Positions 1 through 61,839 of a stretch of 64,000 nt of DNA are shown in pieces. Under the pieces are notes generated by a model. That model made no database searches. It was not told the origin of the DNA and saw nothing but the letters and a program-made list of their open reading frames with translations. The DNA is from Eledone cirrhosa (taxonomy: Eukaryota), in contig OZ024745.1 of NCBI GenBank assembly GCA_964016885.1, positions 67,642,001 through 67,706,000 of the forward strand, in the 5' to 3' direction. The stretch's first letter is position 1. Every line of letters begins with the position of its first letter. Made by a program: the position numbers and the translations under genes.

Positions 1-4152
<4,152 letters not shown>

Positions 4153-4206: not shown

Positions 4207-4240
<34 letters not shown>

Positions 4241-4492
4241 AAAATTAATCTAAATCAAAATTATGGGTGTCATGCCAAAAAGGCATGCGCCATATCACCC
4301 GCAAAATAGCTCCAAGATTCTAATGAATAGGTCCGAGCATTTTATAACAACTATAAATTGATTAACATATAAATAAACATATGAATAACCACAGGAGATA
4401 ATTTTTACAAGTGTGTAAGCACACATAGCTAGGTAGGTAACTAAATAAAGTTAACTAGAACTTCAAAAATAGATACCTTATAATATGATTAA

Positions 4493-4587
4493 TCTTCCCT
4501 GTATATATTCCATTAAAGAATTATATTTCACCAATTAATCGAATGGTAAACGGCGGATGCCGGTACTTGGATTTTCAACAAGGAAGA
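4493..4587 (-). ncRNA. Type I hammerhead ribozyme, U3-A8 core variant (left arm)
   Basis: Stem I UCUUCCUUG/CAGGGAAGA; core UUGAAAA...GAAA; stem II CCAA/UUGG; 9-position stem III with one mismatch; AUA cleavage triplet. Confidence 0.8.
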
Positions 4588-4821
4588 AGTCCAGCGATCT
4601 TTTGTTTACGCATTAAGTTCAAATCAGCAAGTGGTGTATCTACTAGAAATACACACATCATACCAGCTTCATCCCAGTGGCGTGAATAGGGTTATCGACA
4701 ACAAGAAACAGCAACCAAGTCCTTTCAAGCTGGTATGATGTGTGTATTTTTAGTAGATACAGCACGTTTTACTGGCCAGTCGCTGATTTGAACTTAATGC
4801 GTAAACATAGATCGCTGGGCT

Positions 4822-4916
4822 TCTTCCTTGTTGAAAATCCAAGTACCGGCATCCGCCGTTTACCATTCGATTAATTGGTGAAATATATTTCTTTAATGGA
4901 ATATATATAGGGAAGA
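4822..4916 (+). ncRNA. Type I hammerhead ribozyme, U3-A8 core variant (right arm)
   Basis: Stem I 4822-4830/4908-4916; UUGAAAA 4831-4837; stem II CCAA/UUGG with U.U at its base; GAAA 4880-4883; stem III AUAUAUUUC/GGAAUAUAU; predicted cleavage after 4907. Confidence 0.8.
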
Positions 4917-5059
4917 TTAATCATATTATAAGGTATCTATTTTTGAAGTTCTAGTTAACTTTATTTAGTTACCTACCTAGCTATGTGTGCTTACACACTT
5001 GTAAAAATTATCTTCTGTGATTATTCATGTTTATTTTTATGTTAATCAATTTCTAGTTG

Positions 5060-5133
<74 letters not shown>

Positions 5134-5515: not shown

Positions 5516-8500
5516 CAAGGGATAACAAAATATCGTTATAGGTAATCCAGTTAGAGGTTGTGAATACTTCTTATTATGGATAGTTTTAGCGTACGGTGTT
5601 GTTTGACTCAACAAGAGGTTTACGTAGATAGCGAGTTTATGATTTCACTTGTATTGCTATGTAAGTTTATCTTGGAGTAATAAAATTGAAAAAGTGAAGA
5701 ATAACATGGTCAACAGTACAAAAAGGGGGAATTTATTTACAGTCTAACAATTGTTTCTCTGATTAGAGTTGTCTAAAAATTACTGAACACTAGAAGCAGT
5801 GTCACTCAATTTTAAATACGAATCAGAACATCATAACAAAAAATATATAACTGGCAAATCTACAAATTCAAATTACAGCATCAATAATAATATTAATAAT
5901 AAAGATAGAGAGAGAAAAAAAGAAAGAAAGAGAGAAAAAGGAAAAAGAAAAAGAAAAAGAAAAAGAAATAGAGAAATGAAAACAGAAAGATATAGAGAAA
6001 GGAGGAGAGAAAGAGGAGAGAAAAGGATAAAGGAGAAATAACGTAAGAGAAAAATAAAAATAAAGGGAAAATAATAATATCAACATAAATGAATAAATGT
6101 TAATATATGAATAAATGTAAACGAATAAATAAACAAATTACATCGAGGATGATATAAAATGATACAAAATATGAAATATGAAAATATGAAAATAAATAAG
6201 TAAAAATGTGCTAGGAAATTTAAACATATTAAGATTATTGAAAGTGGTTAAAATATAGGGTGATACGAAGGTATAAATATGATAATGTTAAATATATTTA
6301 TGTGTGTATTGGTTATTTTAGTAAATTAATTATATATTTAATTAATTAATTGATTAATTAGTTGTATGTTATATTAGAAGTGAAAATGATATAAGATAAA
6401 ATAAAATGCCAGAGATGAAATAAATTTAGGGAGAGAAATAGAGAGATAGAAAGTGAAAGATAGAGATACATAAAATATGAATGTAGATATAAGAGGTTTT
6501 GATGTTGGTTCATTGATAGATGATGACAATTATAACAATAATGATGATGTGATATTATAATAGATCTAAGTGGTACAATTTGGGTTATGGAATAGATAAG
6601 ATGAATTAAGCTGGTCTAAAGTTCTCAAATTTGGTCGCCGTTTTATGCCTACAGAAAATATTTCTTTCAATTTTACTGTTAAGTAGCATTTTGTTGTAAT
6701 TTAAAATTTGGAAAAGTTCCATATTACAAAGACCACAGTGGTACAAGGCAATTCGATAGGCCGTTGCTGTTGATAGCTTCGTCCAGCAGATTTTATATTC
6801 CATGTTTGCATCTCTGAGTTGCCAGATTTTATTGGCGAGAGTTGTATTTATGAGCTTCCTGTTATTCATAGAGTGTCTATGGACATACCACCTTTTCTTA
6901 AACTCCCCAGCTGTAGATCCTGTGTAGTGCCATGCTAAGCTGCCTGAATTTATAGTACATAGGTATACTATATTTGACTCTAGGCATCTATTTTGTAATG
7001 GGCATTTGTCAGGTAGATGACAATTATATTTAGATGCCTTCTTATGTGTCGGTTCTTCTATATGGTTTTGTAAATTGTTATGTACGGGCTGAGAATTGGG
7101 TTTGTTGATGTATTGTGGGATGTGTTCTGACGTGTGTTTGGTTGTAATGATATTATATGCTTATGTTTTGTATTTGGTGTTATGGTACTTATTTGCGGAC
7201 TACTTGTATTATAAATTCTTTTATAGTTAATTTTATGTATGTGTGATTCTATGTTGTTGGCAGTGGAGTATGATAGTTTGATAGTTTTTCTATTAAAGAT
7301 TTTATGATATTTATGAATTTTAGGGAAGTGTTTGTCAACTAATTTGAAGAAAGTCTAAGGTAGTTTTGTTTTTATAGAGGAGTTAAACACTGGATTGAAC
7401 CATAAGTACTTTCTATCTCTGCATCTTCTATAGTTATTAGTGGTCTTTATATTAGTATTCTGTTCAATTAATTCACGTGCTTTTTACCAATTTCTATGTT
7501 TAGTCCTAGATCTGTTGCTTCTATAGGTGTGGATAGTGTTATTTCTATTAAATGTGTTGTTATTTTTTTTGTATTTGGTATGTATTTGAGTCTCTCTTTA
7601 TGGCCTGCCTTAAGTAAAGCTATGTTGTAGTAGTTAGCGTGTTCGTTAAAAATCTCTAGATTAGAAGATAGGCGTGAGATTCTAAGGGATATACTATGTG
7701 CTATGGAATTAATTATGGATCGATGGTGATTAAAGTTCTAATTAATGTAAGCTAAATTTTCATTATTTTTATGGAAGGGTTCTATTAGTGCTGTGTTTAG
7801 GTTGAGCGATACATCTAAGAAGTTAGCTTTTTTAGAGTTGAGTTCAAAAGTGATTTTAAGGCCCAATTTATTAAAGAATTTTCTAATCTTGTTCCGTAAT
7901 CTTTCTAAGTTTTGATTATTTAGGTTTTTAGCTAAAAGTAATGTATCGTCTCTATAAATTCCTCTTTGTAGGTTATCAAATTCCTTATGTAAGATATGTG
8001 CTATATAAATCCCGACAATGTCCGTAACTTGGGCTGAATCATTTGATCCCATAGTTATATCGAAGTTATTCTGTCTATTTTTTTCTTTCCCAGTAACTAT
8101 TGTCGAATTTAATGATTGTTCTTCTAGCAGCTAATTTTAATTTCCTCTCGTGATAGGTCAGAGTTTTTTGTGCAAAGGATAGTGCCTTATTTGGGGTTAT
8201 TGGGGAAATAGAAGAGTAGTAGTCATTAATGTCAAATTGTATGAAGTCGGAAGATTCTCTATTGTCTAATTTATTAAACCAATCTATTGCTTCATTAGTG
8301 TTACCCCAGAGCTTGATTATTAGTTTTTCTTTAATTTGTGGTATTATTCTATCTAGTATAAACTTGCTAATTCTGCCTATATCTGATTTTGATGGACATA
8401 TTAATCAAATAGTAGGGTCAGTTTCGAAGTTACATTTATGATCCTTCAGATTAAAAGTGGGTTTACAAGGGGTTAGAGGTTCGGTTCTATCAGATATTTT

Positions 8501-8923
8501 AAGTTTTTTTACTATGTTAAGACCTTCCTTGTTAATGCTATTGAGTGTAGACTCTGTATTTTTCTTGTATTTTTTATGTAATTCCCAGCGTATAAAGTTG
8601 TTGTATGTATTAAGGCTCATGGTGTATACATTTGATGTTTTGTCTGCCTTTACTATAATACCGTTGATGTTACGTAATATTTTTAGTAGTGCATGATGTT
8701 ATTTTGCAGTTTGTTATGATGTGTTCGCTTTTTTAATTTAGTTTCCTTTATCATGTTCATGAGGTCAAGTTCAAAGGCATCAAGTTGTGGGTTGCTCGGT
8801 GGATTTTTGCAGGATCTAAACCCATATTTTTAGACCAGCTTAATTCATCTTATCTATTCCATAACCCAAATTGTACCACTTAGATCTATTATAATATCAC
8901 ATCATCATCATTATTGTTATAAT
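5516..8923 (-). mobile_element. Decayed Penelope-like retroelement, Naiad-like (RT + C-terminal GIY-YIG), with short inverted 5' pLTR
   Basis: Fragments in order: KYGFRSCKNPP..LDAFELDL; MGSNDSAQVTDIVG..YRDD; NFLDV; YNCHLPDKCPLQNRCLESNIVY..YTGST..FKKRW; CGLCNME..LLNSKIE..CRH (stop 6606). 8829-8923 is an inverted copy of 6529-6620. Many stops and frameshifts. Confidence 0.85.
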
Positions 8924-8924
8924 A

Positions 8925-11900
8925 TGAAAAATTATGTTATGTATGAAAAATTATGTTATGTATGAAAAATTTAAAAAACAATATTTATTTAAATTACGCT
9001 GGGGGAGGATGAGAAGAAATAGATGGCGAAAAAATTACTGTTATGAGATATATAGAAAAATAGAGAGAAGAGAGAAATTTAACAGAGGATGAACTCATAT
9101 AACGTAAATAAGTCTTAAATTTATGTTTAAGTTACGTATATTTAGTAATTATTTTGTTGTTAGAATTCTAATATAATACAATATAATATTAAGTTTTATA
9201 GGTAAAAAGAAAAATATATATATAGAAAAAATAGATATATAGAAAAAGTAAATATATATTGAAAATATAATAATATATATTGAATAATAAATTGAGAGTG
9301 AATAGATATAAGTAGAAAATAGATAGAAAAAATAGATAGAAAAATATAGATAGAAGAATAGATATATGAATAGAGGAATGGATATATGAGCGGATATATG
9401 GGTATATTCTGTTATAGATAATTATTTTAATAAATTATGAGGGGTACTGGTGTATATTTATATTTAGTGTAAGTAATTAAATTAACTGAGTTAATATGAA
9501 TATTTATATGTTTTTAATATTTTAAATATTTTAAATTGGGAAGATAGTGAAAATCCCAATTTTGTTTATTTATTAGTTAGTATGAGACCATTTTGACGAA
9601 GATATAAATTTTGAAAGATATGTTTAGCCAGAATTAGTTATTGGTTATATTTAAAAATATTTTAAAAAATTAAAAAATATTAAAAATATTAAAATATTAG
9701 AAAATATTTAAAAATATATAATATAAAAATATTAAAAGTTCTGTAAAAATTTCTGGAAAAAAATTTTTTTTTTAATTTTAAGAATCTCAAAAGATACTCA
9801 AAAGATACTCCAAAAAAACAACCTTTTTAAAAAATACTTAAACTATTTAAAATGTTTAAAATTATTCTAAAATACTTAAAATATTTAAAAATATTTAAAA
9901 CCTTTAAAAAATACTTTTAAAATATAAAAAAAATTTTTTTTTTTTTAAACAAAATAATTTTTTTAGATAATAATTTTTAAGAAATAAGTGATGTTTTAAA
10001 AAGTAAGTAATTTTTAAATAAATGAGATATTTTGGAAGTAAAAATAAAAAAAGGGAAAGATTTAGCAGTAAAGAATAAAGATGTAAAAATATTAAGCAGT
10101 AAAGGATAAAGATTTAATAAGTAAAAAATAAGTAAAAATATTAAAGTTAAAATTAAAAATTTATAAAAATTTATGATCTTATATGTATATAATATAAGAA
10201 ATTTTAATATAAGAAATATTAAAATTAAGGATTTATGATCATATATGTATATAATATAAGAAATTTTAATAAGTGAAAATTATAGGCATTGGAATTTATC
10301 GAACAATATGTAGAAAAAAATTATAAGTGTAATTATATTTTATATATATTTTTAAATATTGAATTTAGACGATGTTTACAAGAACTGAATAAATTCATAC
10401 GTATATTAATTGAGTTCTTACATTTAAGTATGAAGAAAATTTCCTCAACACACAATTTGCAAAATCTAGATAGAGCTGTGTTTCTGTAGGCAGGTGCTTG
10501 TGAAATTACATCCCAAGTTAAAGAATAGTCTATATCTTTAGTTTGATAGAGAAGTTGAAGATTTTTTACCAATATTATTAAACGAGTATTTGTGATCATT
10601 GAAACGGGATTTGAAGTCTGTAGAAGTAGAGCCTATATAGTTGAATATATGATCATTAGTTTTGACAGAACATTTATAGACGACATTTTTATCTAAGCAT
10701 TTATTTTTTAAAGGACAATTTGGTTTAATCCTACAATTACATTTAGCAGAGTTGATGTTATTCGGAACATTATTAAGTTGGATATTGTTAGAGGTATTAG
10801 TGCTATTTTGGTTTAGATTTCTATTATTAATTCTATTTATATTTTGTGCTAAGTTCATAGTAGTAGAGTAAGATAGTTTTATTGTATGTCTGTTAAAGAT
10901 TGAATGGTATCTATGGGTTTTGGGAAAGCATTTATCTAGAGCTTTAAAAAATAGTTTAGCTAAAGGTGTTTTAATACTTAGTGAAAATCGAGGTGCATAC
11001 CAAATTATGTTTCTAGTTCTATTCCTTCTTTTAGTATTAGAGTTTATGTTAGGTTTCTTATTATAATTATAATTAATATTATGGTTATTTGCCTTATCAT
11101 TGTTTTCAATATATTTAATTTTATTTATATAGCCTGCTCTACTTAAAGCTTCATTATAATATTCTGCATTATCGTCAAATATGTTTTTATTCGCAGAAAT
11201 TCGAAAAATACGTTGTTGTACAGAATTTACTAGTGATCTTAATAGATTTAGGATGATTGGAGTTGAAGCTTACATAGTTTAAGTTCTCATTAATTTTATG
11301 GAATGGATAGTAGAGCCCTGTATTAAGGTTTAATGTTACGTCTAAAAAGTTAACAATTTTGTAGTTATTCTCTATTTCTAACTTAAGATTGTAGCTATTA
11401 AAAAATTGTATTATTGATTTTCTTTTTCTATTTATTTCACAATTACTATTATTTTCAATTAAAAGCAGCATATCATCACGATATAAACCACCGGTCATCT
11501 CCGGTAGTTTTCTATGTAGTATATTATTAATAAATATCCCCACAAGATCCGTTATTTGCGCCGAGTCTGATGACCCCATGGTGATGTCGAAATTATTTAT
11601 TCTGTCCGCTATGGTCTTTAAATATTTTTTTTAAGTTTTAAATATTTTTAAATATTTTTAAATATTTTAAGTATTTTAGAATAATTTTAAACATTTTAAA
11701 TAGTTTAAGTATTTTTTTTTAAGGTTTTTTTTTAGTATCTTTTGAGTATCTTTTGAGTATCTTTTGAGATTCTTAAAAAAAAATTTTTATTTTTTTCCAG
11801 TAATTTTTTCCAATTTTTTTCCAGAATTTTTTCCAGAACTTTTAATATTTATTCCAGAACTTTTAATATTTTTATATTATATATTTTTTAATATTTTCTA

Positions 11901-12893: not shown

Positions 12894-12900
<7 letters not shown>

Positions 12901-13459
12901 GAATATGTTGAAAAGGTAACACACTAAAGAGAGATAGTGTGTCATCAATAAAACAGGGAAAACCACTAGTGTATGGAATCTATAAACTATGGAAGGCAGG
13001 GTAGACACACAATAATTAAAAATATAAATTAAAATGTATATACGCACCTCTATAACTATATAACACACGCGTACAAATCCAAAGAGATCTGTTTCGCCAG
13101 GAAGTTGTTGACTGAAATGGAATAGCCTATGGTTCATCAGCGCGTGCAAGACTATACATTCCAGACAACTCTAAGAGAATCTAAAGCGACCGTCCAGCTA
13201 CATGCGGCAGAGAGATGTCACAGCGTGTTTATGGCCGTGAAGCAGTGGTATCTGAGGGACGATCTGCTAGAAAGGCAGTCCATAAACCACTCAAAGAAGT
13301 GTGCTCAACCAAACAGAGAGAGAGGAAAGACTGTTATAAGGAGCGAAATATCACGATAAATTAACGGAGCCATAGACTCTCGTTATTCCCTGTCAGTAAT
13401 GTGCTCAAAGGAAAAGGAATCCTGAGCTCTTTAAAATACAATATGTTGAAAATGTAACA

Positions 13460-13464
<5 letters not shown>
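12894..13464 (-). mobile_element. Retrozyme-like non-coding element: 538-bp unit with 33-bp terminal direct repeat, in (TA)n
   Basis: 12894-12926 and 13432-13464 differ at 2 of 33 positions. Contains a complete HHR and no credible ORF. TA runs on both sides. Confidence 0.65.
13064..13148 (-). ncRNA. Type I hammerhead ribozyme with full stem III
   Basis: UGCACGCG-CUGAUGA-aCCAuaGG..CCUGGc-GAAA-CAGAUCU(CUUU)GGAUUUG-UA-CGCGUGUG: 8-bp stem I, 8-bp stem III, GUA triplet; A.C mismatch at the base of stem II. Confidence 0.85.
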
Positions 13465-13500
<36 letters not shown>

Positions 13501-13507
<7 letters not shown>

Positions 13508-14957
13508 ACACACTTATCAGCAGAAACTACCCACCATCCCTAATCAACAATGGATTCCAACGTGCCCTAAAACTGACATCCAGGAACTCAGACACCCCAA
13601 ACCCAGGAATGAACCGCAACAAAAAACTCTACCATACATCTCCACACACAAGCCCCTCAACAATGAGGCATTCGACACCATCCTCCAGAACATTCCTTTA
13701 CTAAAAAGAGACCCAAGAATGAACAAAATCCTCCAAACACACAACATCATAAAGAGCAAAAGACAACCCAAATCCATAAAAAACATCCTCACACAAGCCA
13801 AAATCCAACAAACCCTCACAATGAACCTTACAGTAACAAAATGCGGAAGGCCCAACTGTGGCATATGCATAAATCTAATAGAAGTTTCAACATTCCATTT
13901 TAAACAAGGACAACATTTCACAGTTAAACACAACTTTGCATGTGCATCTGAAAACCTAATCTATGTTTTGACCTGCTCAGGTTATCAAGAGCACTACATA
14001 GGACAGACAAAAAACAGCCTCCGTCAACGTATGACCGTCCATAAATCACAAATTAAAATACAGGAATACAGAAAGATTGCATTTAGTGAATATCGCCAAT
14101 TGTGCACACAACCAACATCCAAACTTTAAAATTTTCCCCATTTACAAATTCATAGACAACGCTACTTTCATCCATCGTACCAATAAGGAAATATATTTCA
14201 TTAACAAATTCCAACCTCTACTTAATGCACTAAACTTCGGACCAAACTAAAACTGGAACAAACAATCAAACATTTACAAGAGTTACCTCCCTCACACCCT
14301 ACCTAATCCTTTTTCTTAGATAAATTAAATATCATCCAGCATGAATTGCCTCCTCTTGCATATTAACTCTCTAAAATGGGAAATCATATCAAACCCCAGT
14401 CCACCATTTGCCTCCATCATGGAATCATGGATCAACTAAGCACCCTTGCTATATTAACAAACAGATTTTGATCTGCTTAACTTCAAGAACTATGCCTGTA
14501 AATAACATTATTTTTTTCTTTCACATTGACTTTTTATGCTCTACATTACGTTCCCTTTTTTCTTTTTTCTTTTTTCTTTTTTCTTTTTTCTTTTTTCTTT
14601 TTTCTTTTTTCTTTTTTCTTTTTTCTTTTTTCTTTTTTCTTTTCACTTCATAAACCTTGTTTGTAAATAACATTATTCTTTCTAAACCATTTCTTTAACA
14701 TGTGCAACACCACCATTCTACACCAATACATATCATTTGATAATGCATAAAAATGCTGAAACCGGTAATAGACAATTATTAAATATATAAATAGATAAAT
14801 AATGCCATTGTTAATTAATTAATAAATCAACTAATACCTTAACACTTCACACAAAGTAAAACATTTCGTTTTAATCATTTTCTAACCCAGAAAAGAGAGA
14901 GATAAAAAAAGAATAAAAATATTTTTTTCTTCCTAATAATCGTCTCTTTCTCCCTGT

Positions 14958-20959: not shown

Positions 20960-22831
20960 GTAAGTATACAATTGAATGTGAGTATTTTTCGATATAGGCG
21001 CCGTTCAGTCTGTTTCGCTATTGAAAGATCAATTTGCTGGCTTCAGTCTTAATTCACGTTTGTTTCAGATAACCTCACACATACAACAGAAGGAAACGAA
21101 AGTTTCAAGAGAAGAAACTTGTTCAAGATGATTTTTTTTTTAATGGATACTTAAACTGGGGCTTAGTGGTTAATGTTATCGGTTCGCAATTGTAAGGTTG
21201 TGAGTTCGGTTCCCAACAGTGCATTGTGTCCTTGAGTAAGACACTCATTTCATGTTACTCTAGTCCATTCAGCTGGATAAATAAATTGTACTTATAATTC
21301 AATGGGCCAGATTTGTCACGCATTGCGTCACGCTGTATCTCCCTAAGGAGATGTGTCTGTGGTTTAATCGAATATAGCGTTCTTCTACAAATACTTCGTG
21401 TGTGTTGAACCTCCGTCGGTTTCGACGACGAGTGTTTCAGTTGTCCGTACAACAGAACAGCTTGCTCGGAAAATTAACACGCAAATGGTTGTGTACCCCG
21501 AACGCAGTTCTCAGGGAGATTCAGTGTGTCAGTGACAATGTGTATGGCAATGCCTGGTCGTATGAGCTGCAGCCTCACATCCGCACTTGATTCCCACTCC
21601 GAATTGGATAGGGCTTAGCGCCTCGCTCAGGTTGTCTTTGACTCACTTGCTGCAAGTCATCGAAAGATGTCCACTGTGATAAGAGCGGACGCCTCCGTCA
21701 TTCTTCCTCAGGGCGGTCAGACTGGCTGAGATTGAAAGGGTTAACTCTAAGGAATATTTATTGATTAAACATATTTTGGCAATGGTTAAAGTCTTTCCCA
21801 AGCCTAGAGGTTCACCGGGTCAAAGCTTAACCCGGTCCTGTTGGCGTCACGCCCCCACTTCCCTTGAACGGGACGTCGACGCGTCGCATGATTAACCCCC
21901 TGCTGCTGTTAGTACTTATTCTTTCAGATGAGTGGACTAGAGAAACATGAAATGTCTTGCTCAAGAATACAATGCGCCATCGCTTCGAGAATTGAACCCA
22001 TGACCTTACGATTAGTGTTTAGAATGACCTTAACATTTTAACCACTAAGCCGCTGGCCTTCACCGTAAACGCATTTACATGTTATGTTACGACAGAGAAA
22101 TTTTTATTTTAAGGAAAGAAAGAAAGAAAGATAAGGCGCCGATCGCTAGATCGGACCAATGAAATCGTGTTTCTATTACTCCTAATATATGCCGATCGCA
22201 CCTCCTAGCCGAAACATCACAGCTTTTCCAGTGACAGAAAGCAGGATTTGAATTCAGAATGCACAGAGCCGGAAGAGACGCTTTAACAATTTTGTCAATC
22301 TACCCTCCCTGAGCTGGTACTTTATTTATTGACTCCGAAATGATGAAAGGCGAAGTTGACCTCGGATTTGAGCCCAGACTACAGAGAGCTGGAACAAATA
22401 CCACGAGGTATTTAATACGACACCTAAATTATATATTTGATATTAAAGGCAACTTAGAAACAAAAACGTAATTATATTGCCATGAAATTTCTTAAAGATA
22501 GTTTAGAAATTAAGCCACGTATGTTTTTCTTCTTCCAATTTTTTTCTTTTCTCATTATTTCTTGATCTAAGACAATCAATATTGCTCAATAAGGTTTTAT
22601 ATTTGTTGTTTTTCAGGCAGTTTTTAAAAATTCTGTTTGCTTTTTTCCTAACCTTAAAATTGATTATCATTACGTCCGCTGGCGCTTCCGTTTCTTTGTG
22701 TCCACATCACACAACTAAAGGTGAAACGTGTGTGTTACTAGGAACATATGTCTTACCATCGATCTTATCATTTAATATAATGACAACACACCATTTGCTT
22801 AGAAATAACAGTCTCTCTAACGATTTCTGTC

Positions 22832-24196
22832 ATGGCTTTAAACAAAAAGTCTCGTTATTTCCTCATCTTTATAGCCCCAGTTTTAACGTATATTATTCTC
22901 TCAATATATTTCAAGAAACTCCAACACAAACAACAATCACTGAACCGCAGTTCTCACAAACAGTTTAAAAGTCATCCTACACTATCTAAACGGAATGAAG
23001 TAATCAATGACAGCAGTGACAGAAAGGGTTCACAACTAGTGATACATGATGTCGTCAAACCAGTTGTAGTTGATGAAATACACGAGGAGTTTCGGGGAGA
23101 AAATAATGATATTATACAAGAGAAATTCATTGAACCTGAACTAAAAATTGAAGAAGTTTTAAAAAGAAACCAACCTAAAAAAGAAACCAAACTAAAAAAT
23201 GAAGATAAGATTGAACATATTTCTAAAAAAGGGAGTGTGAATTTAAATGAAGATAAGATTGAACATATTTTTGAGGAAAAGTTCATTGAAAACCCGATTG
23301 TTGAGCAAGAACTGAAAGTAGAGACTCCGAAAAAGAGAAAAGAAAAGATTTCTAAAATGGAAAATAATCCAATTTCTATATTAAGGGAACCTGATATGAG
23401 ATGGTGCCAGAAATTCCGTGCACGGATTTTGATTTTGATATTCTCGCGACCAGAACATAATTACGAAAGACAGATAATTCGAAAGACTTGGGATAAAGAT
23501 TTACCCAGAGAAATGTATGTCATATTTGTAATTGGAAAGTCTGAATTTAATGAAGATACACTGGAATCGGAGGAAGAATTTCAGGATATACTTCAGGGTG
23601 ATTTTAAGGACCACAGACGATCTGAAACAACAAAATTTATGATGACATTATTTTGGTTTAGTCAACTACAAAATGTTTGTAAAGTCCCAAAGCTGGTCCT
23701 TAAAACTGTGGATAGCATTTACATAAATGTAGCTGCTTTCCACGAATGGCTACGAACTAAATACACAGCTACTAAAAACGTCTATTTAGGCAGAGTTGTG
23801 AAAAAAGATCAACCAAACAGAGATCGAGCAAACCCCAGGTATGTTCCAAAGATAGCTTTTCACCACTATATGTTTCCGGATTATCTAAACGGACCTCAAT
23901 ATTTATTTTCGTCAGATGTTGTTCAGAGAATGTCGTATGTTTCAAAACTAGTTTTTCCTATTGCTGTCGAGGACGCATATATCGGTTTACTTTGTGATCG
24001 TCTGCAAATAAAACCGACGCAAGACGAAAACTTCCATCTTCTTATGAAGACTGCCAATGTGTGCATTAATTCCAAACTTCTTTTCATTTTCTGTAAATCT
24101 GCCAAAGAAATGAACAGATTACACAGACAAATAATTAGCAGCAAGAAATCCTATGAATGTCAGCTACCACGAAGTAAGAAACATCTTGGTTTGTGA
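22832..24196 (+). CDS. Beta-1,3-galactosyl/GlcNAc-transferase-like protein (CAZy GT31), type II membrane protein, 454 aa
   Basis: Intact ORF with N-terminal TM (YFLIFIAPVLTYIILSIYF), charged stem, then ILILIFS.P...RQIIRKTW, FVIG, DILQGDF.D, VLKTVDSIYIN, YLG, FPDYLNGPQYLFS and EDAYIG. A single coding exon is typical of this family. Confidence 0.92.
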   Translation: MALNKKSRYFLIFIAPVLTYIILSIYFKKLQHKQQSLNRSSHKQFKSHPTLSKRNEVINDSSDRKGSQLVIHDVVKPVVVDEIHEEFRGENNDIIQEKFIEPELKIEEVLKRNQPKKETKLKNEDKIEHISKKGSVNLNEDKIEHIFEEKFIENPIVEQELKVETPKKRKEKISKMENNPISILREPDMRWCQKFRARILILIFSRPEHNYERQIIRKTWDKDLPREMYVIFVIGKSEFNEDTLESEEEFQDILQGDFKDHRRSETTKFMMTLFWFSQLQNVCKVPKLVLKTVDSIYINVAAFHEWLRTKYTATKNVYLGRVVKKDQPNRDRANPRYVPKIAFHHYMFPDYLNGPQYLFSSDVVQRMSYVSKLVFPIAVEDAYIGLLCDRLQIKPTQDENFHLLMKTANVCINSKLLFIFCKSAKEMNRLHRQIISSKKSYECQLPRSKKHLGL

Positions 24197-29799: not shown

Positions 29800-32700
29800 C
29801 CTCATTCTTCTCCTCTCTCACCTACAGGCTGATATAGAGAGAAGGCCCATTCACTCGGGCCATTCTCGCTACTTTCACCCACCTTTTATAAAAATTGCTG
29901 GGGTAGAGCACCTCTCTCTCCATTCTGATCCTTCTTCTAAAGTGGTACTTGAAAAAAAAGACCAGTTGTTGACCGGAGAGAAAGGTGTCTGACCACAGCC
30001 CTTTCAACCTTGTCTACCATACAACTTCTTTCGCCATGGCTATCACACAGAGGAAAACCGCCTCTCCTTCGTTTTTGAAAGGGGGAGGCGGTTTGATCGT
30101 GACAATGTTCTCGGTGGTCAACCGGATTGGTCCCACTCGCGACAGTAGTCGTTCCACATATCCCCACAGGTCAGCAACGCCCGGGCAGTGTACGAATGCG
30201 TGTGAGACGGTTTCCTCGTCACGCACGCATCTCGGACAGATCTTCTTCGAGGGGTCCCTACCCGGGCGCCCGTGTCTGTAGAGCTTGTCCCGAACGAGTA
30301 GAGCTCCTCGGTAACATTGCCAAGCTAGGTACTTTTGGAAGTTGTCCATCGGTCCCGGGCCAAACGTCCTACCGAACAGACTGGCCAGCTCATCTTCCTC
30401 CATGCCCAGAGCCTCTCCGAGTGCGTCGTCGCACTTACTGCGCACCAACCCTCTATAGAATGTTGAGGTTGAGTCTCCACTGATTGCCGGATCCGCTTGC
30501 CAGAGGGCCGTGAGCGCCTGGGCACATTCAATGTGCCAGTCGCCCACTTTTCTCGGTCTTTGCTTGACCCAGGATTGCAGGTCGGTGAGTAAGACGAGTC
30601 TCGGAAAGGCTCGCCTCACAAACAGGGCCCACACCGGCTGACCGGTGAGGAATACCTGGAGGTGCCGTAGCCTTAATGCGTGTCTACGCATCGTCAGCCA
30701 CGGCATCCCCAGCCCTTCGTTCGAAGGGTGTTGACAGCAGATGGATCTTCTCACCAAAGGAGCCCGCTTCTTCCAAAGAAATCGGAAGAGCGCGCGCTCC
30801 ATTTTGGCAAGTGTTTTCTCTTGTCAAGGCACGACGGTCAAGCGGTAGTAGATGACGGACTCTATATAAGCGTTCGCCACCTCCGCTCGACCTTTCAGGG
30901 ATAGTTTGCACTCGGCCCACTTCTGGGCGAGTGCAAACACCTTGCCCGTTACTTCGTCCCAGTTTTTCTCCACCTGGAGGTCCGGTCCGAACCAGACCCC
31001 GAGCAGCTTCACCGGTCCCTCCGTCCAGCGTCCGACGATGCCGTCGGAGGGCATCGTTTTGCCCCTCCACGTCCCGAGTTGCAAACCGACGGACTTGTCC
31101 CGGTTCAGCTTGGCTCCTGTGAACCTTTCATATTCCTCCAGTAAGGTGCCGATTTGCCCGATTTCCGAGGCGCACGACACCATTACTGTCACGTCATCGG
31201 CGTAGGCCGACACCGCTTTCCGCAATCCCGGTTCCAAGGGGATGCCCTGCAACAGCTCCAGCTTCCGCAGTAGTGGCTCGAGAGCCAGCACATACAGGAG
31301 GGAGGAGAGAGGGCATCCCTGTCGGATGGATCGCGTGATTTGGAACGGCTACGAGAGGTAGCCGTTCACCTTGACCCTCGAGCAGGTGTTGCTGCTGTGC
31401 ATTGCAGCAATCCAGCCCTTGAAAACGGGTCCAAAGCCTGCCGCCGCGAGCACCGCATCCAGGTACCGATGGTCAACCCTATCGAACGCCTTAGATTGAT
31501 CCAAGTTGATCAGGGCCCCACCAAAGCCGGGTTCGTTCCCTACCCTCTCTACGATGTATCGCATGAGGTGGAGGTTGTCGTGTATGGACCTGGACGGGAT
31601 TGCGCATGTCTGCGCTTCTCCCACCAGGTTCCCGACGACAAGCGCCAACCTCTTCGCTAACACCTTGGCCAAAATCTTTAACTCTGTGTTTAGCAGAGTT
31701 ATGGGCCTGAAGTTATCTATGTCATCCCCCTTGTTCTCGTCCTTCCTCACCAGCGTGACTACGCCCTTGGTCACAGAACTGGGAATTCTCCCGTTCTGTT
31801 GCCAGTTGCAGTAGACCGCCTCGAGGAGACCGGAGAACAAGCCCGGCATCGCTACATAAAGTTCGTATGGTAGACCATCGAGACCCGGAGATTTGCGTTT
31901 GCTGCATTGGCTCAGCTCTTCCCCTATTTCAGCGGCTGAAATCGGCCTCTCTCAGGACTTCGCCTCCTCGTCCGAGAGCCGCGCCAGACCGTCGAGGTAT
32001 GGACCGAAATCCATGGCCCCACCCGGCCCGCCGCCCCTCCCGAACAGTCGTGCAAAGCACCGTTGAAAGGCCGCGCTCATCCGCTCAGGTTCAAGGATCA
32101 CGCGTCCATCCTGGTCCTTCAAAGACCGAATCGTGGACTTGTTTCCACTTTTGCCTCTGTCACTCGGGCCCAGCTAACAGCTTTGGCTCCCTAATTACCC
32201 AGAGCACGTATTTTACTCCTGACAACGCAGCCCTCGTGCTTCGCATCAAAGAACTGGTCTAGGGCCGTACTTGACGCCAGCACGCCGGAACGTTGCCACT
32301 CCTAATCGCCTCTTCTCCTCTATTTATTAATTCCCTTTCAGTTCTATTCCTATCTGATGCTAATTCCCGACTAAAACCTATCGATTCTATTCTAATTTCT
32401 CTCTTGAGAGAGCCCCACCACCTGCTGTTGACAATTTCCCCCGTCAAACGCTGCTTAACTAGTGTGCTAATCCGCTTACTGTAAGCTTTGTTTGTCGGTA
32501 AAGACAAGTTTAGCTTCCAGTAACCGGGTCCCTGTCTATGAGTTCTATCAAGGTTGACCACTCCGGTCACCAACTTGTGATCCGAATAGTCAACCATGAA
32601 TATTCGTGGACAGCTTAATATGTCCCTATCCTTATTTCTAACTAGGAACCTATCTAGGTACGACCTAGATGTTCCGCTAAGATTAGTCCACGTCCACAGT

Positions 32701-33257
32701 GGCACAGTCGGAAAATCTAGTCGATATCTATCGGCCAGATCAAATCGGCCGATTAATCGTTTGAGGCTGTTACACCCCCCTCTATCGGGACATGCCCCTA
32801 CATAGTCCCAACGTGCATCCAGGATACCATTCCAGTCCCCCACTAAAAGTAAGGAGCGAGACGTTCCCAGGAAATTCTCCAGGCGTCGGAAGAAGTCCGG
32901 TCGCGGTGTCCCAGATGGGACATACGCTGCCACCAGCCTGAAAGCTCCACCTTCACTACTGCCGACGTCTAAAACCACCAGTCGACCCTCCGGGTCCAGC
33001 TGTACCTTCTGTGTGGCAAGACCCAGGTATTTTCGCAGCAGAACGACAACCCCACCCCCATCCCTCGGCTGACAAAAAGATGCGTAGATCTCAAAGTCGT
33101 CGAAGATGGGGGCCAGTTGGCGCTCGCTGCTGATCCTGGACTCGCAAATAACCATTACATCCACTCTGTGCGACCTGAGGTCATTTAAGAGTTTACCCTG
33201 TTTCCAGGACATCCACAGGCCGCGTGCATTCACACATCCAACTCTTATATTGGCCAT
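29800..33257 (-). pseudogene. LINE ORF2 (APE endonuclease, reverse transcriptase, zinc finger), frameshifted
   Basis: NARGL, ICES, GDWN, SYLDRF, SDH, YWKLN; NFRPITLLNTELKIL, DQSKAFDRVDH, RQGCPLSP, YADD; CPRC..ETVSHAFVHC. Confidence 0.92.
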
Positions 33258-33299
33258 GTTGGTGTTGAAGAGTTAAAAAGGAAGAGGAAAGGAAATTAC

Positions 33300-35121
33300 T
33301 TACCTCTTCGTCTCCTGGGGACCAGGCTGCACAATTTCTATGGGGGTGTTGGAAGGGTTGTTTGGTGGGGTGGTGGTTTGTGGTGGGGTGAGAACATCAG
33401 TGTGTGGTGGGATTAGGGTGTTTAGTGGGGTGTGGGTGTCTGGTGTGGGGGTGGGGAAACATCTCAATAGGACGTGGTTAAGTGGTTTGGTGCAGTTGGT
33501 CCCCACATGCATTGGATGGTTCTTTTTCAAAGTTACATAGGTTTCCGTTGGGACCCTAATCATCATTAGGTGCAGTTTGTTCGCTGCGTAGGTGAAAGTG
33601 ATCCCTTCGGTTTCCACCGAAGGGTTATTTTCTATCGCTTTCATCAACGTTTTATTGTTCTTGTTAATGTATGTATAGAGTTTTTGTTGTGTTGTGTTTG
33701 TTTTTGTTTGTTGTTCTTGTGCGTGTTTGCGTTTTGTAGTATGTGTTATGTTTTGGGGAGGGGTGGGGTTTTTTGTTTGTGATGTTTGTTCTGTTTGTGC
33801 TGGTGGTTGTGTGTTTGTGGCATTTTTGTTAATGTGATACCTTTTTTTTTGTTCCCCTTTTCACCTGTTGAAAGGGTTCTCCCTCGTCGTCACTGGGTGA
33901 CGTTGATACGGAGTCCTCTTCCGTGTTGTTGGGGAGGGGTATATTTTGGGGTTTTGTTGTTGTTGCTTTTGTATTTGTTTTAGGTGGGGAGGGGTTGGGT
34001 GGAACAGTGTTTTGTGTTGTTATATTTTCCGTGTTGTTGTGGTTGTTGTTGTGGTGGTGGTGGTGGTGGTGGTGGTGGTGGTGGTGGTTGTGTTGTTGTG
34101 TTCGGGGTTGGCAGAAGAGCCTTTTTTTTACTCGTTAACTGAGGACAGGCAGCCCTCAGGTGACCCCTGCTTAAGCAGTGGTAACATGACGGCCGCCTTC
34201 CCTCCACTGAAATGTTTATATAAGTTAGCCCGTCCAGAGGCACGCGTTGTGGGATATTCGCTATTCGTTCTTGGCTCATTTGCACCAGAACTTCTACGCT
34301 GGTCCCACCAAATACACCTCCGGAGGACTTTCCTATTGAAATTATCTTGTCTTCATCAAAGTCAATGATTCCACATAGTATCCACCAAATATTTACATTT
34401 GGTGTGATACTCATTATTTTTATTCTTTGTGTCCTTTTTCCCCTGTATGTGGGGAAAAAGGTGAAGCGGGGGGACACAATGGGTGATACCGAGTACTTTT
34501 GTGCTGTTGACTGGTTGTTCATTAGCACCGAAATGCTACCAAACAGTTTACCTTTTTGTATGAAGGTTATGTCCTTCATTGCATCTTTTAGAACCAGCTC
34601 AATTTCATTTTGTGATAATTGAGCTTGTTTTCTTGTTTCGTTCGATATTGTCCTGAAAACTGTGGTTTTCAGGACAGCCTCTCTACGTAATTCCTGTGGA
34701 GAATTGATGCTAAAAGCACCGTTTTCGCCAAAAGTCACGAATTGTTTTGCGTCTTGTAATAATTGTTTAGCATTTGTTATGTCTATTGGCGTGTATAGTT
34801 TGTTTTTTTTTTACAGTCTGTGCGAATGTGTGTTTTGGTGTTGTTGTCTTTTTTGTTGCTGTCACTGTTGGTAATATTGTTCATGTTTTCCTTGGTGTTG
34901 CTATTGTTGCAGTTGTTGGTTGTGGTGTTATTGTCATTGTTCTTGTTGTTGGTGCTGGTATTATTTACCGGGTTTGGTTTCGTGGTTTCAATATTTTCAA
35001 CGTTTTTCAATAATGCGAGGGGGGGGGAAGGCTGCAAGCTTTGTACTCCTACCTTCCCTCCACCACTTTTCTTAGTGGGCGTGGCACTCACGACAGTGTG
35101 CGAGGTGGAAATGGCATCCAT
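33300..35121 (-). pseudogene. LINE ORF1 (gag-like), disrupted
   Basis: MDAIS start, frameshift at the T-run near 34805, VEGRRPSCYHCLSRGHLRAAC knuckle, stop at 33980, ends just before ORF2. Confidence 0.75.
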
Positions 35122-36004
35122 TGCTGATACCAAGTCTACACAGATGAAAATGAAAATTTCGCCCCAGAAAGGGGCGAAAATTAGTTGACTCAATGTCTGA
35201 CGGCCCAGGCAAGGGGTTAAACTAAACAATGCTATTAAATTGAGCAATGAACTCACAGTTTTTTTGACAATAATCCGTAAAAATCCGGAGCGAATTAATT
35301 CACGTCTATATCAAGTGGTAATTGATATAGAGAGTGGTATTGAGAGAGAGTGTTGTATGGTTGATGTAGAGAGGGGGAGGTTTTTGGTGTTATTGAAAGT
35401 GGGAGGAAGATCTCCCTGTCGGACGGGGAGATTTGACAAGTCTGTCACTTATACAACATGCAAAGAGTTATATATGTATAAATGTTTTCAACAAACCCGG
35501 ATTTTGAATAACGGCTTTTGTATTGAGGGAGGGGGGGATAACTGAACGCGTAAGATGCGGGCCCGCTGCGTGTGAAGAAATAAAGGAAAATATAAGAACG
35601 AGGCCAAAACTGATTTCGACAGATATGACAACACACAATAATTGTTTGGCTGTTCCATTGCAGAGGAAAGTCTCAATTTGGTGGCACAAAATACTGTATT
35701 GTTTAGATTCAAATTTGAAAAGCGTTCTTTTTGACAGTATTTACTCAGGTAAGTTTACAGGTGAACATATCCTACATAGAGTGTTGAGAGGTCAGGTGTA
35801 GTTGACCTTTCAATTTATTATCATTCATTTTGTGTTGAGATATGATAGTTATTCCGTAAACACAGAAACTCTATACACACAAATATATATATGTGTGTGT
35901 GTGTGTGTGTGTTTATGTATATATATGTATGGATATATATATATATATATATTTATAAATATATGTGTATGTATGTATATGTGTGTGTGTGTGTATATAT
36001 ATGC

Positions 36005-49895: not shown

Positions 49896-50284
49896 AGTAA
49901 GATGTGAGACAATATGTAGCTTCTATACTTGACTAATCTGTTTTTATTGTGACACCCCTTTGATATTAGCCCGGCCAAAACCAGCTCTTGTTGCTTGAAT
50001 CAAAATATTCCATTTTAAAGAGTTCTTATTTAGATTAACATCTTACAACATGATTTTATTCTAGAATCAAATGTTAAGTTATTATATTAGTAATGAAATA
50101 ACTTCACATTTGATTCTAGAATAAAATCATGTTGTAAGATGTTAATCTAAATAAGAACTCTTTAAAATGGAATATTTTGATTCAAGCAACAAGAGCTGGT
50201 TTTGGCCGGGTTAATATCAAAGGGGTGTCACAATAAAAACAGATTAGCCAAGTATAGAAGCTACATATTGTTTCACATCTTACT
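49896..50284. repeat. 389-bp near-perfect spacerless palindrome
   Basis: Arms mirror around g50090 with only a few mismatches. Confidence 0.92.
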
Positions 50285-51273: not shown

Positions 51274-51329
51274 TTTAGAACACAGTTTTCTGAGCCATCT
51301 ATAATTACCAACGATAAGCACGCAACAAT

Positions 51330-54300
51330 ATGGAACAATCACTAGCATCATCGTCCGTACAAGCAGCTATATCCCTGCGGATACCGACATTCTGGCCTCA
51401 TGGTCCTACCATTTGGTTCACATTCATCAAGGTCCAATTTAAGACGCACCATATTTCGGCAGACAGGACCAAAATTTCCCATGTTGTCGGGGCGCTTCCT
51501 CATGAGAGCCTGCAGCAGATCCGGGATTTGCTTACAGCACCACCAGACACATATTCTTATGCCACATGTAGGTCCGAGCTTATAAAGCGGACGTCCGTCT
51601 CGCAGCAGCAACTAATTAATCAACTGCTTTATTCAGAGGAGTTAGGCGACAAGAAACCGTCCCAGTTCCTAGGACGCCTAAAGCAACTATTGGGAGAAAA
51701 CACCATGGAGCCGGCCATCTTAAAAACAGCTGTTCTTACAAAGGCTGCCACCAGCCGCTCGCAGTATTTTGGCGGCCAGTGAAATATCCACCGCAATCGA
51801 GGAGCTGGCGGATTCAGCCGATAGGATCATGGAGGTGACAGCACCATTGTCACTCGTGACCCAGGACACACACACAAATCCCATAGTAAGCTCTTTTTCT
51901 TCCCCTCTTTCTTCCTCATTTTCTAATTCTTCTCCTTCTTCGTCTTCGGTTTTGGAGGTGGCGGCGCTCGAGGCTCGAGTGAAAGAACAGGCCGAGCAAC
52001 TGAACGCTCTTATGGCTAAACTGCAGTTAAAACCACGCAGCAACGCCAGCTCAACTCGATGCGCTTCCCATCAGCGCCCGCGAAATCCGAGTCGTACCCG
52101 GGTGACCGATCCCATGTGCTATTATCACTGTAACTTCGGCGAACGGGCCCGTAAATGCCTATTGCCTTGTTCTTTTAGGAGGGGTTTCCGTTATGTGCCG
52201 GGAAACGACGTGGCCAGGCAGTAACGGCGATAACTACACCTGGCTCTTCCAAACCTAGCTGCTTGTTCCACATTAGCGACCAGTGTTCGTTTTCTGGTGG
52301 ACACCGGAGCTGAGGTTAGCGTTATACCATCATCCCTGGTGTCAGGCAGTAAGAAACCCACAAAGGTCCTTCTCAAGGCGGTGAACCATTCTGCTATACC
52401 CACATGTGGAGAAAAGTCCTTAACCCTTAATCTTGGACTCCACCGAGTTTTCCAGTGGGTTTTTGTCATCGCCAAGTTGTCGACTCCGATCCTAGGAGCG
52501 GATTTCTTACACTATTTCGGTCTCCTGGTGGACGTTAAACACAACAGACTGATTGATTCCACCACGGGATCCAATGTTCGCGGCATCAGCACCAAGGCAC
52601 CATCCCTCAGCCCCCACCACGACAAAGTTAATTCGATTTTAGAGTTTCCCACTCCTACGTCACTGAGGAAAGTACATGAGTTCCTTGGCCTCATATATTT
52701 TTACCGTCGGTTCATTCCTTGCTGTGCAGAGTCTCTCCAGTCGCTAACAGACATCTTACGGCAGTGCAAACGGAAGAACCAGCTTATCACTTTCGATGAC
52801 GCACAAGCGGCCGCTTTTCTGAGAGTAAAGCGGACCTTAGCAGAGGCCACAATGTTGGTTCATCCCAAACCTGACGCACCGTTTGGCCTGTTCGTCGATG
52901 CATCGGATGTCGGGGTCGGTAGCGTCCTCCAACAATGTGTAGACGATGCGTGGAAGCCAATTTCTTTCTTCCCTAGGCGACTCAAACCGGCCGAAACAAA
53001 GTACAGCACATTCGGTCGGGAACTTTTGGCAGCGTACCTCTGTGTGAGACATTTCCGGCACATGTTAGAAGGTTCAGTGTTCTCTATTGACACGGACCAG
53101 AAACCTTTCACGTACGCTCTGTATTACAAGCCTGACCGCCACTCACTCACCTAGAGAAGTGCGCCACCTGGATTTTATATCCCAGTATACTACGGATATT
53201 CGCCACATTAAAGGTTCAGACAACTCTACAGCCGACGCCCTTTCTCGCGCACACTTGGGTGCACTGCACACCTCCTTTTCCATCAGCCTCCGAGACATCA
53301 CCGCCGCTCAACAGACGGATGCGGAGCTCTTCAAACTCCGAAATTTTCCATCTTCTTCCTTGTCTTTCAAACTCCTCCCTCAACCCTTTTCTTCTGGTGG
53401 TATCTGGTGTGATGTGTCTACGGGTCACGCGCGCCCTTATGTGCCCCGACAGCATTGACGTTCGGTTTTTTCTGCGCTGCACAACCTATCGCATCCTGGA
53501 GCCAACTCTACCCTTAAGTTATTAACAGCCCGGTTTATTTGGGTTGGTGTGAACAAGGACTTTGTGTCCAGTGTCGGAAGGCGAAGATTCCCCATCATGT
53601 CAGAACCCCTCTGGGAACCTTCACAACACCGGATGCACGTTTCCAACACGTACACATCGATATCATCGGACCACTGCCTTCTTCTCAGGGTTGCACGCAC
53701 TTTTGACCTGTGTGGACAGATTCTCCCGGTGGCATGAGGCCATTCCTCTTTCCGACAACTCAACCGAATCTATTGCCAAGGCGCTAGTACAGCATTGGAT
53801 TTCGCGTTGTGGCACACCTTCTACCATAACAACGGACAGAGGCGGCCAGTTCGAATCAAACATTTTTCAAGAATTGACAGGCCTCCTAGGTTGTAGTCGA
53901 ATACGTACAACAGCCTATCACCCTGCAGCTAATGGTATGGTGGAACGTTTCCATCAGCAATCAAAATCGGCTCTCAGAGCCTATGTCAACAGTAACTGGT
54001 TGGAGATCTTACCCCTCATCCTTCTTGGAATTCTTTCCACCGTAAAAGAAGGACTTGGTTTTACGCCGGCTGAGCTGGTTTATGGCACGACATTGGTATT
54101 ACCCGGGCAAATGATTGCCGCTGAGTCTAAATACCCCGCAGATCCAATGAACTATATCCATCGCCTGCGGACCTACATGGCAAACCTGCCATCGGTTGCC
54201 CCGCGCCCTCAAAGCATCACTACGCAAGTTCCATCCGACCTACAGCAATAGACACATGTTTTTGTCAGACCGGACACTATCAGGGCTCCTTTGCAACCAC

Positions 54301-54554
54301 CATACTCGGGGCCCTACCAAGTACTCAAAAGGACACCCAAGTATTTCATTTTGGACATTAATGGAAGGAAGGATGCTGTCAGTGTCGACCGGTTAAAAAA
54401 AGCACATCTGGATTTGGATGAATCCTCATCATCAGATCAAGTTAACCCAACACCAGTGCTCCCATTCACCGGCAATCCGAACTCTATGCCAACAAGCACT
54501 AGATCCGGGCGACGTGTGTACAGGCCATCTCGCTATGCTCAATATGGCAAGTAA
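51330..54554 (+). pseudogene. gag-pol remnant with frameshifts and RT deletion
   Basis: ORF pieces 51330-51782, 51769-52224, 52297-53154, 53087-53458, 53562-54251 and 54291-54554. Protease joins the RT thumb directly at about 52612 (APSLSP|HHDKV); no LPFG or YxDD motif. Confidence 0.9.
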
Positions 54555-60015: not shown

Positions 60016-60267
60016 CAAAAAATTAAATTAAGGGTTGTCATGTATGAGAGACATGCGCCATATCCACTGTAGAATAAGCTCAAAGATTCCAATGAATAGA
60101 TCCGAGCATTTTATATCAACTAGAAATAGATTGACATATATATAAAATAAATACATGGAACAATCACAGTGAATAATTTGTAAAGAATGTAAGCACACAT
60201 AGCTAGGTAGGTAACTAATTAAAGTTTAACTAGAACTTCAAATATAGATACCTTTTAAAATGATTAA

Positions 60268-60361
60268 TCTCCTTTGTATATATTTCTTTAAGTAAGAAAT
60301 ATATTTCACCAATTAATCAGTAAATCACAGTAGTCAAATCCTGGCTGGTCACCAAAGGAGA
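60268..60361 (-). ncRNA. Type I hammerhead ribozyme, G3-C8 core variant, in PLE-like element 60016-60430
   Basis: UCUCCUUUG-GUGACCA-GCCAG..UUGGU-GAAA-UAUAUUUCUU(ACUUA)AAGAAAUAUA-UA-CAAAGGAGA: perfect 9-bp stem I, 11-bp stem III, 5-bp stem II. Confidence 0.85.
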
Positions 60362-61839
60362 AGAAAATAACTATCTGCGTTTACAAAGCAAATGCAAATC
60401 TGATGTGTGTATTTTTTAAAAATACATTAAGTGATGTCATAACTTTTACAATATGCTTAAATTTATCTAAAGGATGGTTTATACATCAAAGACTTAAAAT
60501 TATTCTATTTTTTCGCATTGATTAGACTACGTTTCTGACACAATTTAGTTATTAACTTACATACCCTGTACATTTCGAACGTTCTACCGCTACATGTACT
60601 TCAAATACATTTTACAATTAATCTTTATTTTCACATTCGATTGTGTTATATCATGTCTACTTTACAGATTTCGTTTTGATGCCTCGTGGAAAAAAAAGAA
60701 GTTGCCTCAGCAGATTGTCGACTGGTGATCATCGAAAACTACTTGAACCGTCCAAAGGACGGGTACTTTAGCTAGTGCATATATATATATATAAACGATT
60801 GTCTTCCACACAGATTCCTGAGTCTTTAGTAGAAAGACATTTACCTTAGACACCACATTTAGGTTAGACGCCATATATAGGTGGGGATGTGCATGTGTGG
60901 CGTGGGTGTATGCGTGCACATGTGTGGAGGGTACATGTGTGTGTGTGTGTGCTTGTGTGTGCTTGTCTGTGCATATGTGTATGTGTGTGTGTGTATATGT
61001 GTATTACACTTTTATTGAGAGTGGCGTCGAAGTTTCGCTGGTTATGTAATTTATTTGAAGTCACTGGCAAAATTATAACAAACATTTTGTTGACACAGGC
61101 ATGGCGGAGTGGTTAAGAAGTTTGCGTTGCATTCATGTATTCCTGGGTTCGATTTCATTCAAAGATCATTGAGCAAGTAAATGTTCGTTATTTCAATATA
61201 AGCTTATCAGACAGCTGTCTAGTACAAAGAAATCAATTTTCCACCAACTGAATAACTTAATACAATTATAACCATATACTCTTATATAAAATATTGATAT
61301 ATACCCACAAATTAATTAACCCGTTACCAATAATACTAATACAACTAATATCAAATAATCGATATAGTTAGTAAAATTATCAAAAAATATACATGAAGAT
61401 CTTCTACAAAGTGTCGGAGTAACGGTCCACTAAATTCCATTCAGAATGTATTGGTCAACCCAAAGCTATAGTAGAAGACATTTTTCCTAGGTGCCTGGCC
61501 TATGAGACAAAACTCGAAACCATCTAATTGCGAAGCCAACTCCTCAGTCGCACAACCATATAAGCCCTGCGTCTTATATATTAACACTATTATATACAGT
61601 GGGCGGTGGATTGGCAGTATCGGTAGAGGGTCGGACGCCATGCGTTGTAGTATAGAGTTACGGCCCTTTATGATCTGAGTTCAAATCCCGCCTTTCATTC
61701 TTACAGGGTCGATAAATAAAGTACCAGTCACGCACTGTGGTCTATTTAATCGACCCCCTCCCCCCTCAAATTGCTGGCATTGTGCCTATATAAGAAACCA
61801 TTATGTACAGTGGGTTTTGTAGTCTGTAGGTATACATAC

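Follow-up and report, generated by a model that had tools for sequence, protein, structure and literature searches.

Two loci in the window (the whole 64,000-nt stretch of DNA analysed here) carry hammerhead motifs of a single repeat family that has swapped its core 3-8 pair. The best explanation overall, to which we assign a probability of about 0.4, is a core-swapping hammerhead in a PLE-like repeat that likely cleaves solely in tandem. The core 3-8 swap is solid; its U3-A8 half was already known, and its G3-C8 half is apparently new in nature. Hammerhead positions follow the general numbering convention, and the genome searched is that of an animal (3.0 Gb).

The element at 4.2-5.1 kb is a tail-out inverted pair that contains two U3-A8 hammerhead motifs, at 4822-4916(+) and 4493-4587(-). 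Its left arm, 4239-4728(-), is a 5'-truncated copy of a ~570-nt repeat unit (U-A subfamily A1), carries the optional ~110-130-nt tail and ends in (TA)n; its right arm, 4727-5063(+), holds this unit in inverted and more strongly truncated form and closes at the first of the preferred 3' ends, in front of (TA)n. A 4-kb (TA)n/(TATG)n microsatellite at window positions 1-4150 directly precedes the element. The right-arm motif is of type I: stem I (4822-4830/4908-4916) has the strands UCUUCCUUG/UAGGGAAGA, the core UUGAAAA at 4831-4837 supplies U3 U4 G5 A6 A7 A8 A9, stem II is CCA/UGG on U10.1·U11.1 with loop II at 4842-4875, GAAA lies at 4880-4883, stem III has 9 bp (4883-4906), and A17 is A4907, with the cut predicted 3' of A4907. 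A UUAAUC tail (4917-4923(+)) complements the GAUUAA with which loop II ends on its 3' side; this GAUUAA/UUAAUC helix has no pair changed on both sides, and we therefore reject the helix as proven. The left-arm motif has the core UUGAAAA (U3-A8) at 4578-4572 and a stem III with one mismatch. The second locus, 60016-60402(-), is a 5'-truncated copy of the G-C subfamily (B1) with the tail present and its end in (TA)n. Its motif, at 60268-60361(-), has the core GUGACCA at 60352-60346 (G3 U4 G5 A6 C7 C8 A9, hence G3-C8), an 11-bp stem III, a predicted cut 3' of A60277 and a G10.1 private to that copy. This copy appears to be intronic in, and on the same strand as, what we take from translations to be a paired-box/homeodomain gene, with exon-like frames at ~40073-62206(-).

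The sequence-only reading had called both motifs type I hammerheads with cores UUGAAAA and GUGACCA, neither of them CUGANGA, and re-reading of the sequence, a relaxed descriptor and RNAalifold all bear this out. Run on both strands of the window, the descriptor matches 4493-4587(-), 4822-4916(+), 60268-60361(-), a canonical-core motif at 13140(-) and two AT-rich sites. The latter, ATGAATA matches at 9496(+) and 12101(-) with just two further stem III pairs, are probably chance and were set aside. In a 54-copy alignment, RNAalifold predicts stems I, II and III without their being supplied as input, and we conclude that the motif almost certainly has a hammerhead-type fold. The covariation first seen in stem I holds, with three pairs changed on both sides, whereas stems II and III are paired without two-sided changes, that is, without covariation. 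Stem III, 9 bp at one site and 11 bp at the other as originally described, is 9-11 bp across the alignment with 98.7% of cells paired, and was rightly set apart from the minimal dimerising PLE type, in which it is absent or a 1-2-bp palindrome.

Clustering, with 28 shifted duplicates removed (236 to 208) and clusters of fewer than four omitted, leaves 157 copies in eight subfamilies. The majority base at positions 4, 5, 6, 9, 12, 13, 14, 15.1 and 16.1 is invariant in all eight (157 copies, those derived from the pattern being biased toward the invariant hammerhead positions), and 151 of 241 flank columns are invariant across the same subfamilies. The core positions that vary are just 3, 7, 8 and 17, and the majority base at 17 is A or U, never G. 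All eight subfamilies have U10.1·U11.1 at the base of stem II in place of the usual G10.1-C11.1, a known tolerated variant (PMC3088659). Judged from these sequences, self-cleavage after AUA in source elements is probable. Standard searches miss the family, as had been anticipated: Rfam local scans of U-A, G-C and C-G copies give no hammerhead match at E<=10, even for the C-G copy, and an Rfam scan of the whole window gives microsatellite noise alone among the 150 of 279 matches listed.

To tabulate the 3-8 pair genome-wide we used a pattern that fixed U4 G5 A6, A9, CCA/UGG-U-GAAAUAUAU and two stem I bases and left positions 3 and 8 free. The pattern has 1,805 matches, a lower bound in which the arms of one insertion are counted separately, and its reversed control has none. 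The earlier proposal of one family with a real 3-8 swap survives this count: a single pattern recovers the states U-A, G-C and C-G, and positions 3 and 8 do not vary independently, being Watson-Crick in 1,724 matches and unpaired or wobble in 81 (4.5%). U3-A8 accounts for 1,435 matches (by subtraction), G3-C8 for 192, and G8 with C or A at position 3 for 97, with C in 69 of the 69 matches listed. The mismatch classes, counted by hand from complete lists, are U·G (22), C·A (22), A·A (9), U·C (8), G·A (5), C·C (5), G·U (4), U·U (3) and C·U (3). A fourth state, A3-U8, is rejected (0 of 1,805). The family thus includes a third subfamily, with a canonical C3-G8 core; this subfamily, two mismatch lineages and the leader:loop II helix described below had all been overlooked by the sequence-only reading.

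On an unrooted tree of 218 of 236 rows (18 dropped, some shifted duplicates kept) with positions 3 and 8 masked, the three 3-8 states form separate groups. G-C is one clade adjoining C-G, with a stem of ~0.03; U-A is separated by ~0.095 with support 0.74. Because the states fall in separate clades, the evidence for 3-8 covariation amounts, on these sequences, to two independent double changes and not to 1,724. By a rough hand estimate, the chance of each double change landing on a complementary pair without selection is ~1e-4 to 4e-3.

Two mismatch lineages, each with its own diagnostic loop base, C3·A8 (12 matches, 8 loci) and U3·G8 (8 matches, 7 loci), are likely a single-step route between 3-8 states. 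Both lineages count against a strict requirement for the pair: a weakened 3-8 pair does not stop transposition, in agreement with a PLE whose insertion in vitro was unaffected by hammerhead mutants (PMC11167929). The propagation of these lineages also favours an account in which a mobilising protein recognises the structure, which persists as its signal, cutting is dispensable and the 3-8 changes are drift between tolerated states, as do the in vitro insertion result and the fact that U10.1·U11.1 and non-canonical 3-8 pairs each lower the rate. We consider that account improbable: all large subfamilies have a Watson-Crick 3-8 pair, the mismatch lineages comprise just 20 of the 1,805 matches, and the variation, with positions 7 and 17 free and the rest fixed, follows catalytic rules.

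Natural U3-A8 has been reported (PMC3088659), with ~1,300 matches in Schistosoma Cercyon PLEs (PMC4209133). In the papers searched, G3-C8 is described solely as an engineered rescue (PMC11167929; PMC8495972; PMC3884650), and C3G/G8C restores cleavage partly in a PLE hammerhead (PMC11167929). The engineered mutants share the G3-C8 core pair with the present repeat; they are laboratory constructs with partial activity, whereas here G3-C8 is fixed in a subfamily found in nature (192 matches). No natural G3-C8 was found in the literature searched, PMC10085705 and PMC6155905 included; survey supplements may contain variants.

The repeat unit is non-coding and ~570 nt long, with 17 of 25 direct spacings at 530-572 nt. 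Searches of the genome with each window copy yield ~1,900 candidates each, and the 40 scored are 93-97% identical. Most genomic copies are single or inverted. Units also occur head to tail in short tandems or as inverted pairs, of which 47 of 48 have the tails outward, and adjacent inverted copies are 5'-truncated. There are two preferred 3' ends, ~110-130 nt apart, both of which run into (TA)n. No ORF of at least 90 aa lies inside the window copies, and downstream ATGs, judged by eye, meet early stops. PLEs are typified by partial tandems, truncated copies in inverted orientation, a tail that may be present or absent, and insertion into microsatellites (PMC8557442; PMC11167929), and on these traits we read the repeat as a putative retrozyme-like, non-autonomous derivative of a PLE.

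A tblastn comparison of 180 loci with seven PLE fragments from the window revealed no autonomous partner, linkage being inconsistent: PLE protein fragments lie near some of the 180 loci, at varying distance from, and orientation to, the hammerhead motif. The window itself contains two broken copies of PLE-type RT/endonuclease (6606-8698 and 10333-11630(-)) with weak RVT_1 matches. Judging from translations, we take ~30014-35310(-) to be a broken L1/Tx1-like LINE and ~51318-54554(+) to be a broken Gypsy-like LTR element. Elsewhere in the window are a single 470-aa open frame that contains a Galactosyl_T domain (22784-24196(+), E=1e-28) and a ~130-nt near-perfect hairpin at ~50024-50156, visible just via chance miRNA-model matches.

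Among 66 copies retrieved by DNA similarity, single copies of the repeat decay approximately neutrally (core 1.1-1.4%, downstream 0.9-2.1%). Selection would thus act on source elements, not on insertions. Contigs of two runs of unspecified library type cover the repeat with no ends visible, and we give them no evidential weight. The 4.2-5.1 kb copy is probably silent, because a read-through transcript of the inverted pair would fold back into a duplex covering 94 of 95 ribozyme nucleotides and because the pair has no repeat-unit head. The word active, which the sequence-only reading had applied to the family, therefore fits source elements at best, the 4.2-5.1 kb copy being an inverted pair that buries its ribozyme.

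Loop II (30-37 nt) complements the leader directly 5' of stem I, with a median of 19-25 bp. The sequence-only reading was correct that stem II keeps CCA/UGG; its description of the loops as unrelated does not stand, because loop II covaries with the 5' leader. In the 54-copy alignment, 8 of 13 counted leader:loop II pairs are changed on both sides, with 86.6% of cells paired, as compared with 39-44% for slid controls of the whole structure; the counted pairs were derived from these very sequences, and relatedness inflates the shuffle test. Cognate leader:loop II duplexes average -15 to -22 kcal/mol vs. -8 to -12 kcal/mol for shuffled leaders. Within-group duplexes are generally stronger than across-group duplexes, with exceptions among close U-A groups: the A1b leader with the A1 loop, and the A2a leader with the A1 and A1b loops, are at least as strong as cognate, and the A1b and A2a cognate duplexes lie just ~1.5 SD below shuffles. 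In the right arm of the 4.2-5.1 kb element, the leader at 4800-4821(+), immediately 5' of stem I, is predicted to pair with loop II from 4842 to ~4863 (-18.1 kcal/mol vs. -10.3+-2.9 shuffled, p=0.01); the segment 4822-4916 alone excludes this leader. In the G-C copy, the leader at 60362-60388(-) is predicted to pair with its own loop II, 60341-60312 (-18.6 vs. -7.1+-2.7 shuffled, a value reached by none of 300 shuffles). Of 63 copies, 47 have the leader as the strongest 30-nt partner for loop II, and 7 of the 16 misses are due to an adjacent inverted copy. We conclude that the leader:loop II helix is very likely real. Its structure is well supported; its role as a two-copy lock is speculative.

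Two further hammerhead repeats have a similar helix. Family Z, a ~540-nt repeat at ~12900-13460(-) with 3,051 first-look candidates, carries a motif at 13064-13172(-) with a canonical CUGAUGA core, A10.1·C11.1 and a CCA/UGG stem II. Its ~22-bp leader:loop II helix is like that of the main repeat, to which its sequence is unrelated; the duplex of the window copy (13140(-)) is -22.4 vs. -8.9+-2.7 shuffled (0 of 300 shuffles). Family Y, a tandem repeat of ~626-640 nt (L201-L212, e.g. G000:C6:35056245-35056535) also unrelated in sequence to the main repeat, has a CUGAGGA hammerhead, U10.1·U11.1 and a leader:loop II helix with a 5-6-nt bulge. The duplex is ~-21 vs. -11 in typical family Y copies and absent or weak in some: the first copy tried has no such helix (p=0.25), and among 11 correctly anchored rows, one further mis-anchored row lying outside the 11, six are at p<=0.01, two at 0.04-0.05 and three above. 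In the main repeat, Z and Y alike, a stem II of 3-4 bp stands on a mismatch and loop II is long. A minimal hammerhead-like motif at ~14730-14775(+), downstream of a GIY-YIG PLE frame (13458-14129), has the U3-A8 core UUGAUAA (kept in 14 of the 15 copies listed), a GCAU/AUGC stem II, a palindromic ACCGGU stem III and a stem I of just ~2 bp.

The leader helix begins 0-3 nt from both stem I and stem II, and the core stays outside it. The loop II left over is ~7-12 nt after the well-supported helix and a median of 1-10 nt after the full predicted duplex. During transcription, the leader:loop II helix would form first and would hold the stem I 5' strand, the core and CCA in a ~19-nt hairpin loop. 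With the usual helix rise (~22 bp correspond to ~60 A) and nucleotide reach, the ~7-12 nt remainder would be too short, or borderline, to span the ~60-A helix back, and so stem II would not close in a single copy. On this model the leader helix and stem II probably cannot coexist in one copy, and cleavage would therefore likely need two tandem copies; the steric argument, estimated by hand, is borderline, the predominance of single or inverted genomic copies counts against the model, and we advance the two-copy requirement tentatively.

The position of the helix, flush with both stems, is also what would be expected of a hammerhead that folds within one copy with a pseudoknot clamp, in which the active state keeps paired only a proximal stretch of the leader helix, between half a turn and one turn long, and the distal part frays and serves to pre-fold or damp the ribozyme. 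The 7-12 nt of slack plus fraying could suffice for such a fold, and the family Y helix carries its 5-6-nt bulge. However, compensatory changes extend to the distal helix (column pairs 20-87, 23-83 and 24-82), and the distal part would have to melt, the gap between the lowest-energy fold and the active fold within one copy being, before tertiary terms, 5.5-13.6 kcal/mol across the eight subfamilies. We regard the in-copy clamp as a doubtful alternative.

The leader hairpin is part of the lowest-energy fold in 6 of 8 representative copies and can form ahead of stem II transcription, as it would if the helix were purely an OFF switch that guards monomers and circles until a helicase, chaperone or RT opens a plain type I fold; low PLE hammerhead activity has likewise been ascribed to missing factors (PMC4209133). 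It would be odd for an inhibitor to leave the core and the two stem strands untouched in each of three unrelated families, and a pure OFF switch seems to us less probable still than the clamp. We accordingly favour, as a model, cleavage by two copies that swap stem II, ahead of the in-copy partial clamp, then the OFF switch and, last, the non-cutting signal.

According to the favoured two-copy model, in a head-to-tail transcript the core-bearing loop of one copy would dock on the neighbour's UGG-GAAA-stem III-cut site-stem I half. Read across the tandem junction, the arrangement would be a type II-like hammerhead with the leader helix as a stem I-stem II clamp, and the single-copy steric constraint would disappear. 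Monomers would be cut out of tandem transcripts, single copies and circles would stay intact, and a PLE-type RT acting in trans would reinsert the monomers. The fullest version of this proposal, in which a rigid ~20-bp strut forbids the in-copy fold, halves of two copies swap stem II, at least three unrelated families use this arrangement, and one family has run through three Watson-Crick 3-8 states including a natural G3-C8, is unlikely to be right in every part.

PLE hammerheads are described as needing two copies (PMC4209133; PMC6765202), by a route that the long stem III removes here. With the Schistosoma Cercyon/PLE hammerheads (PMC4209133) the repeat shares type I order, location in a PLE-like repeat, natural U3-A8 and, probably, two-copy control. 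It differs from them in that stem III, there absent or a short palindrome, is long and stable, stem II is 3 bp with U·U, a 30-37-nt loop II is paired to the leader, and one family has three core states, including G3-C8. With the non-LTR retrozymes it shares non-coding head-to-tail units, one type I hammerhead and likely PLE mobilisation, although the unit there is ~300 nt as compared with 530-572 nt here (PMC7229834; bioRxiv 10.64898/2026.07.22.740005). Unlike those retrozymes, the present repeat forms mostly short tandems and inverted pairs and has no 1-2-bp stem III; the axolotl retrozyme HHR_Amex2 has, as here, U·U at the stem II base.

The type II pseudoknotted hammerheads of bacteria and phages (PMC3088659) likewise have a helix that links the sequence preceding stem I with that following stem II, a very short stem II, U10.1·U11.1 and U3-A8 variants. 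The leader helix occupies the position of the type II pseudoknot, and the core is left free in both; the pseudoknot is activating and is ~4-6 bp in one compact motif, whereas the leader helix is ~20 bp (PMC3088659). Type II order, with stem II open, would arise here across the tandem junction alone; within one copy, loop II is closed. In the literature searched, we found no report of this repeat family or of a stem II-swap dimer.

These results indicate that ribozyme families present in many copies in animals are missed by Rfam and by searches of the CUGANGA type. Our knowledge of the 3-8 tertiary pair derives from a crystal structure and from rescue mutants; with three versions of the pair fixed in one natural family, the core-context tolerance of each can be compared on material that already exists, and G3-C8 is apparently added to the natural hammerhead repertoire. 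The leader helix is weightier than the core swap. If true, the model would describe a novel copy-number control of a hammerhead via a leader:loop II strut, and the leader helix, if it is a two-copy lock, would be a second independent solution to the problem, faced by PLEs, of cutting tandem precursors yet sparing monomers.
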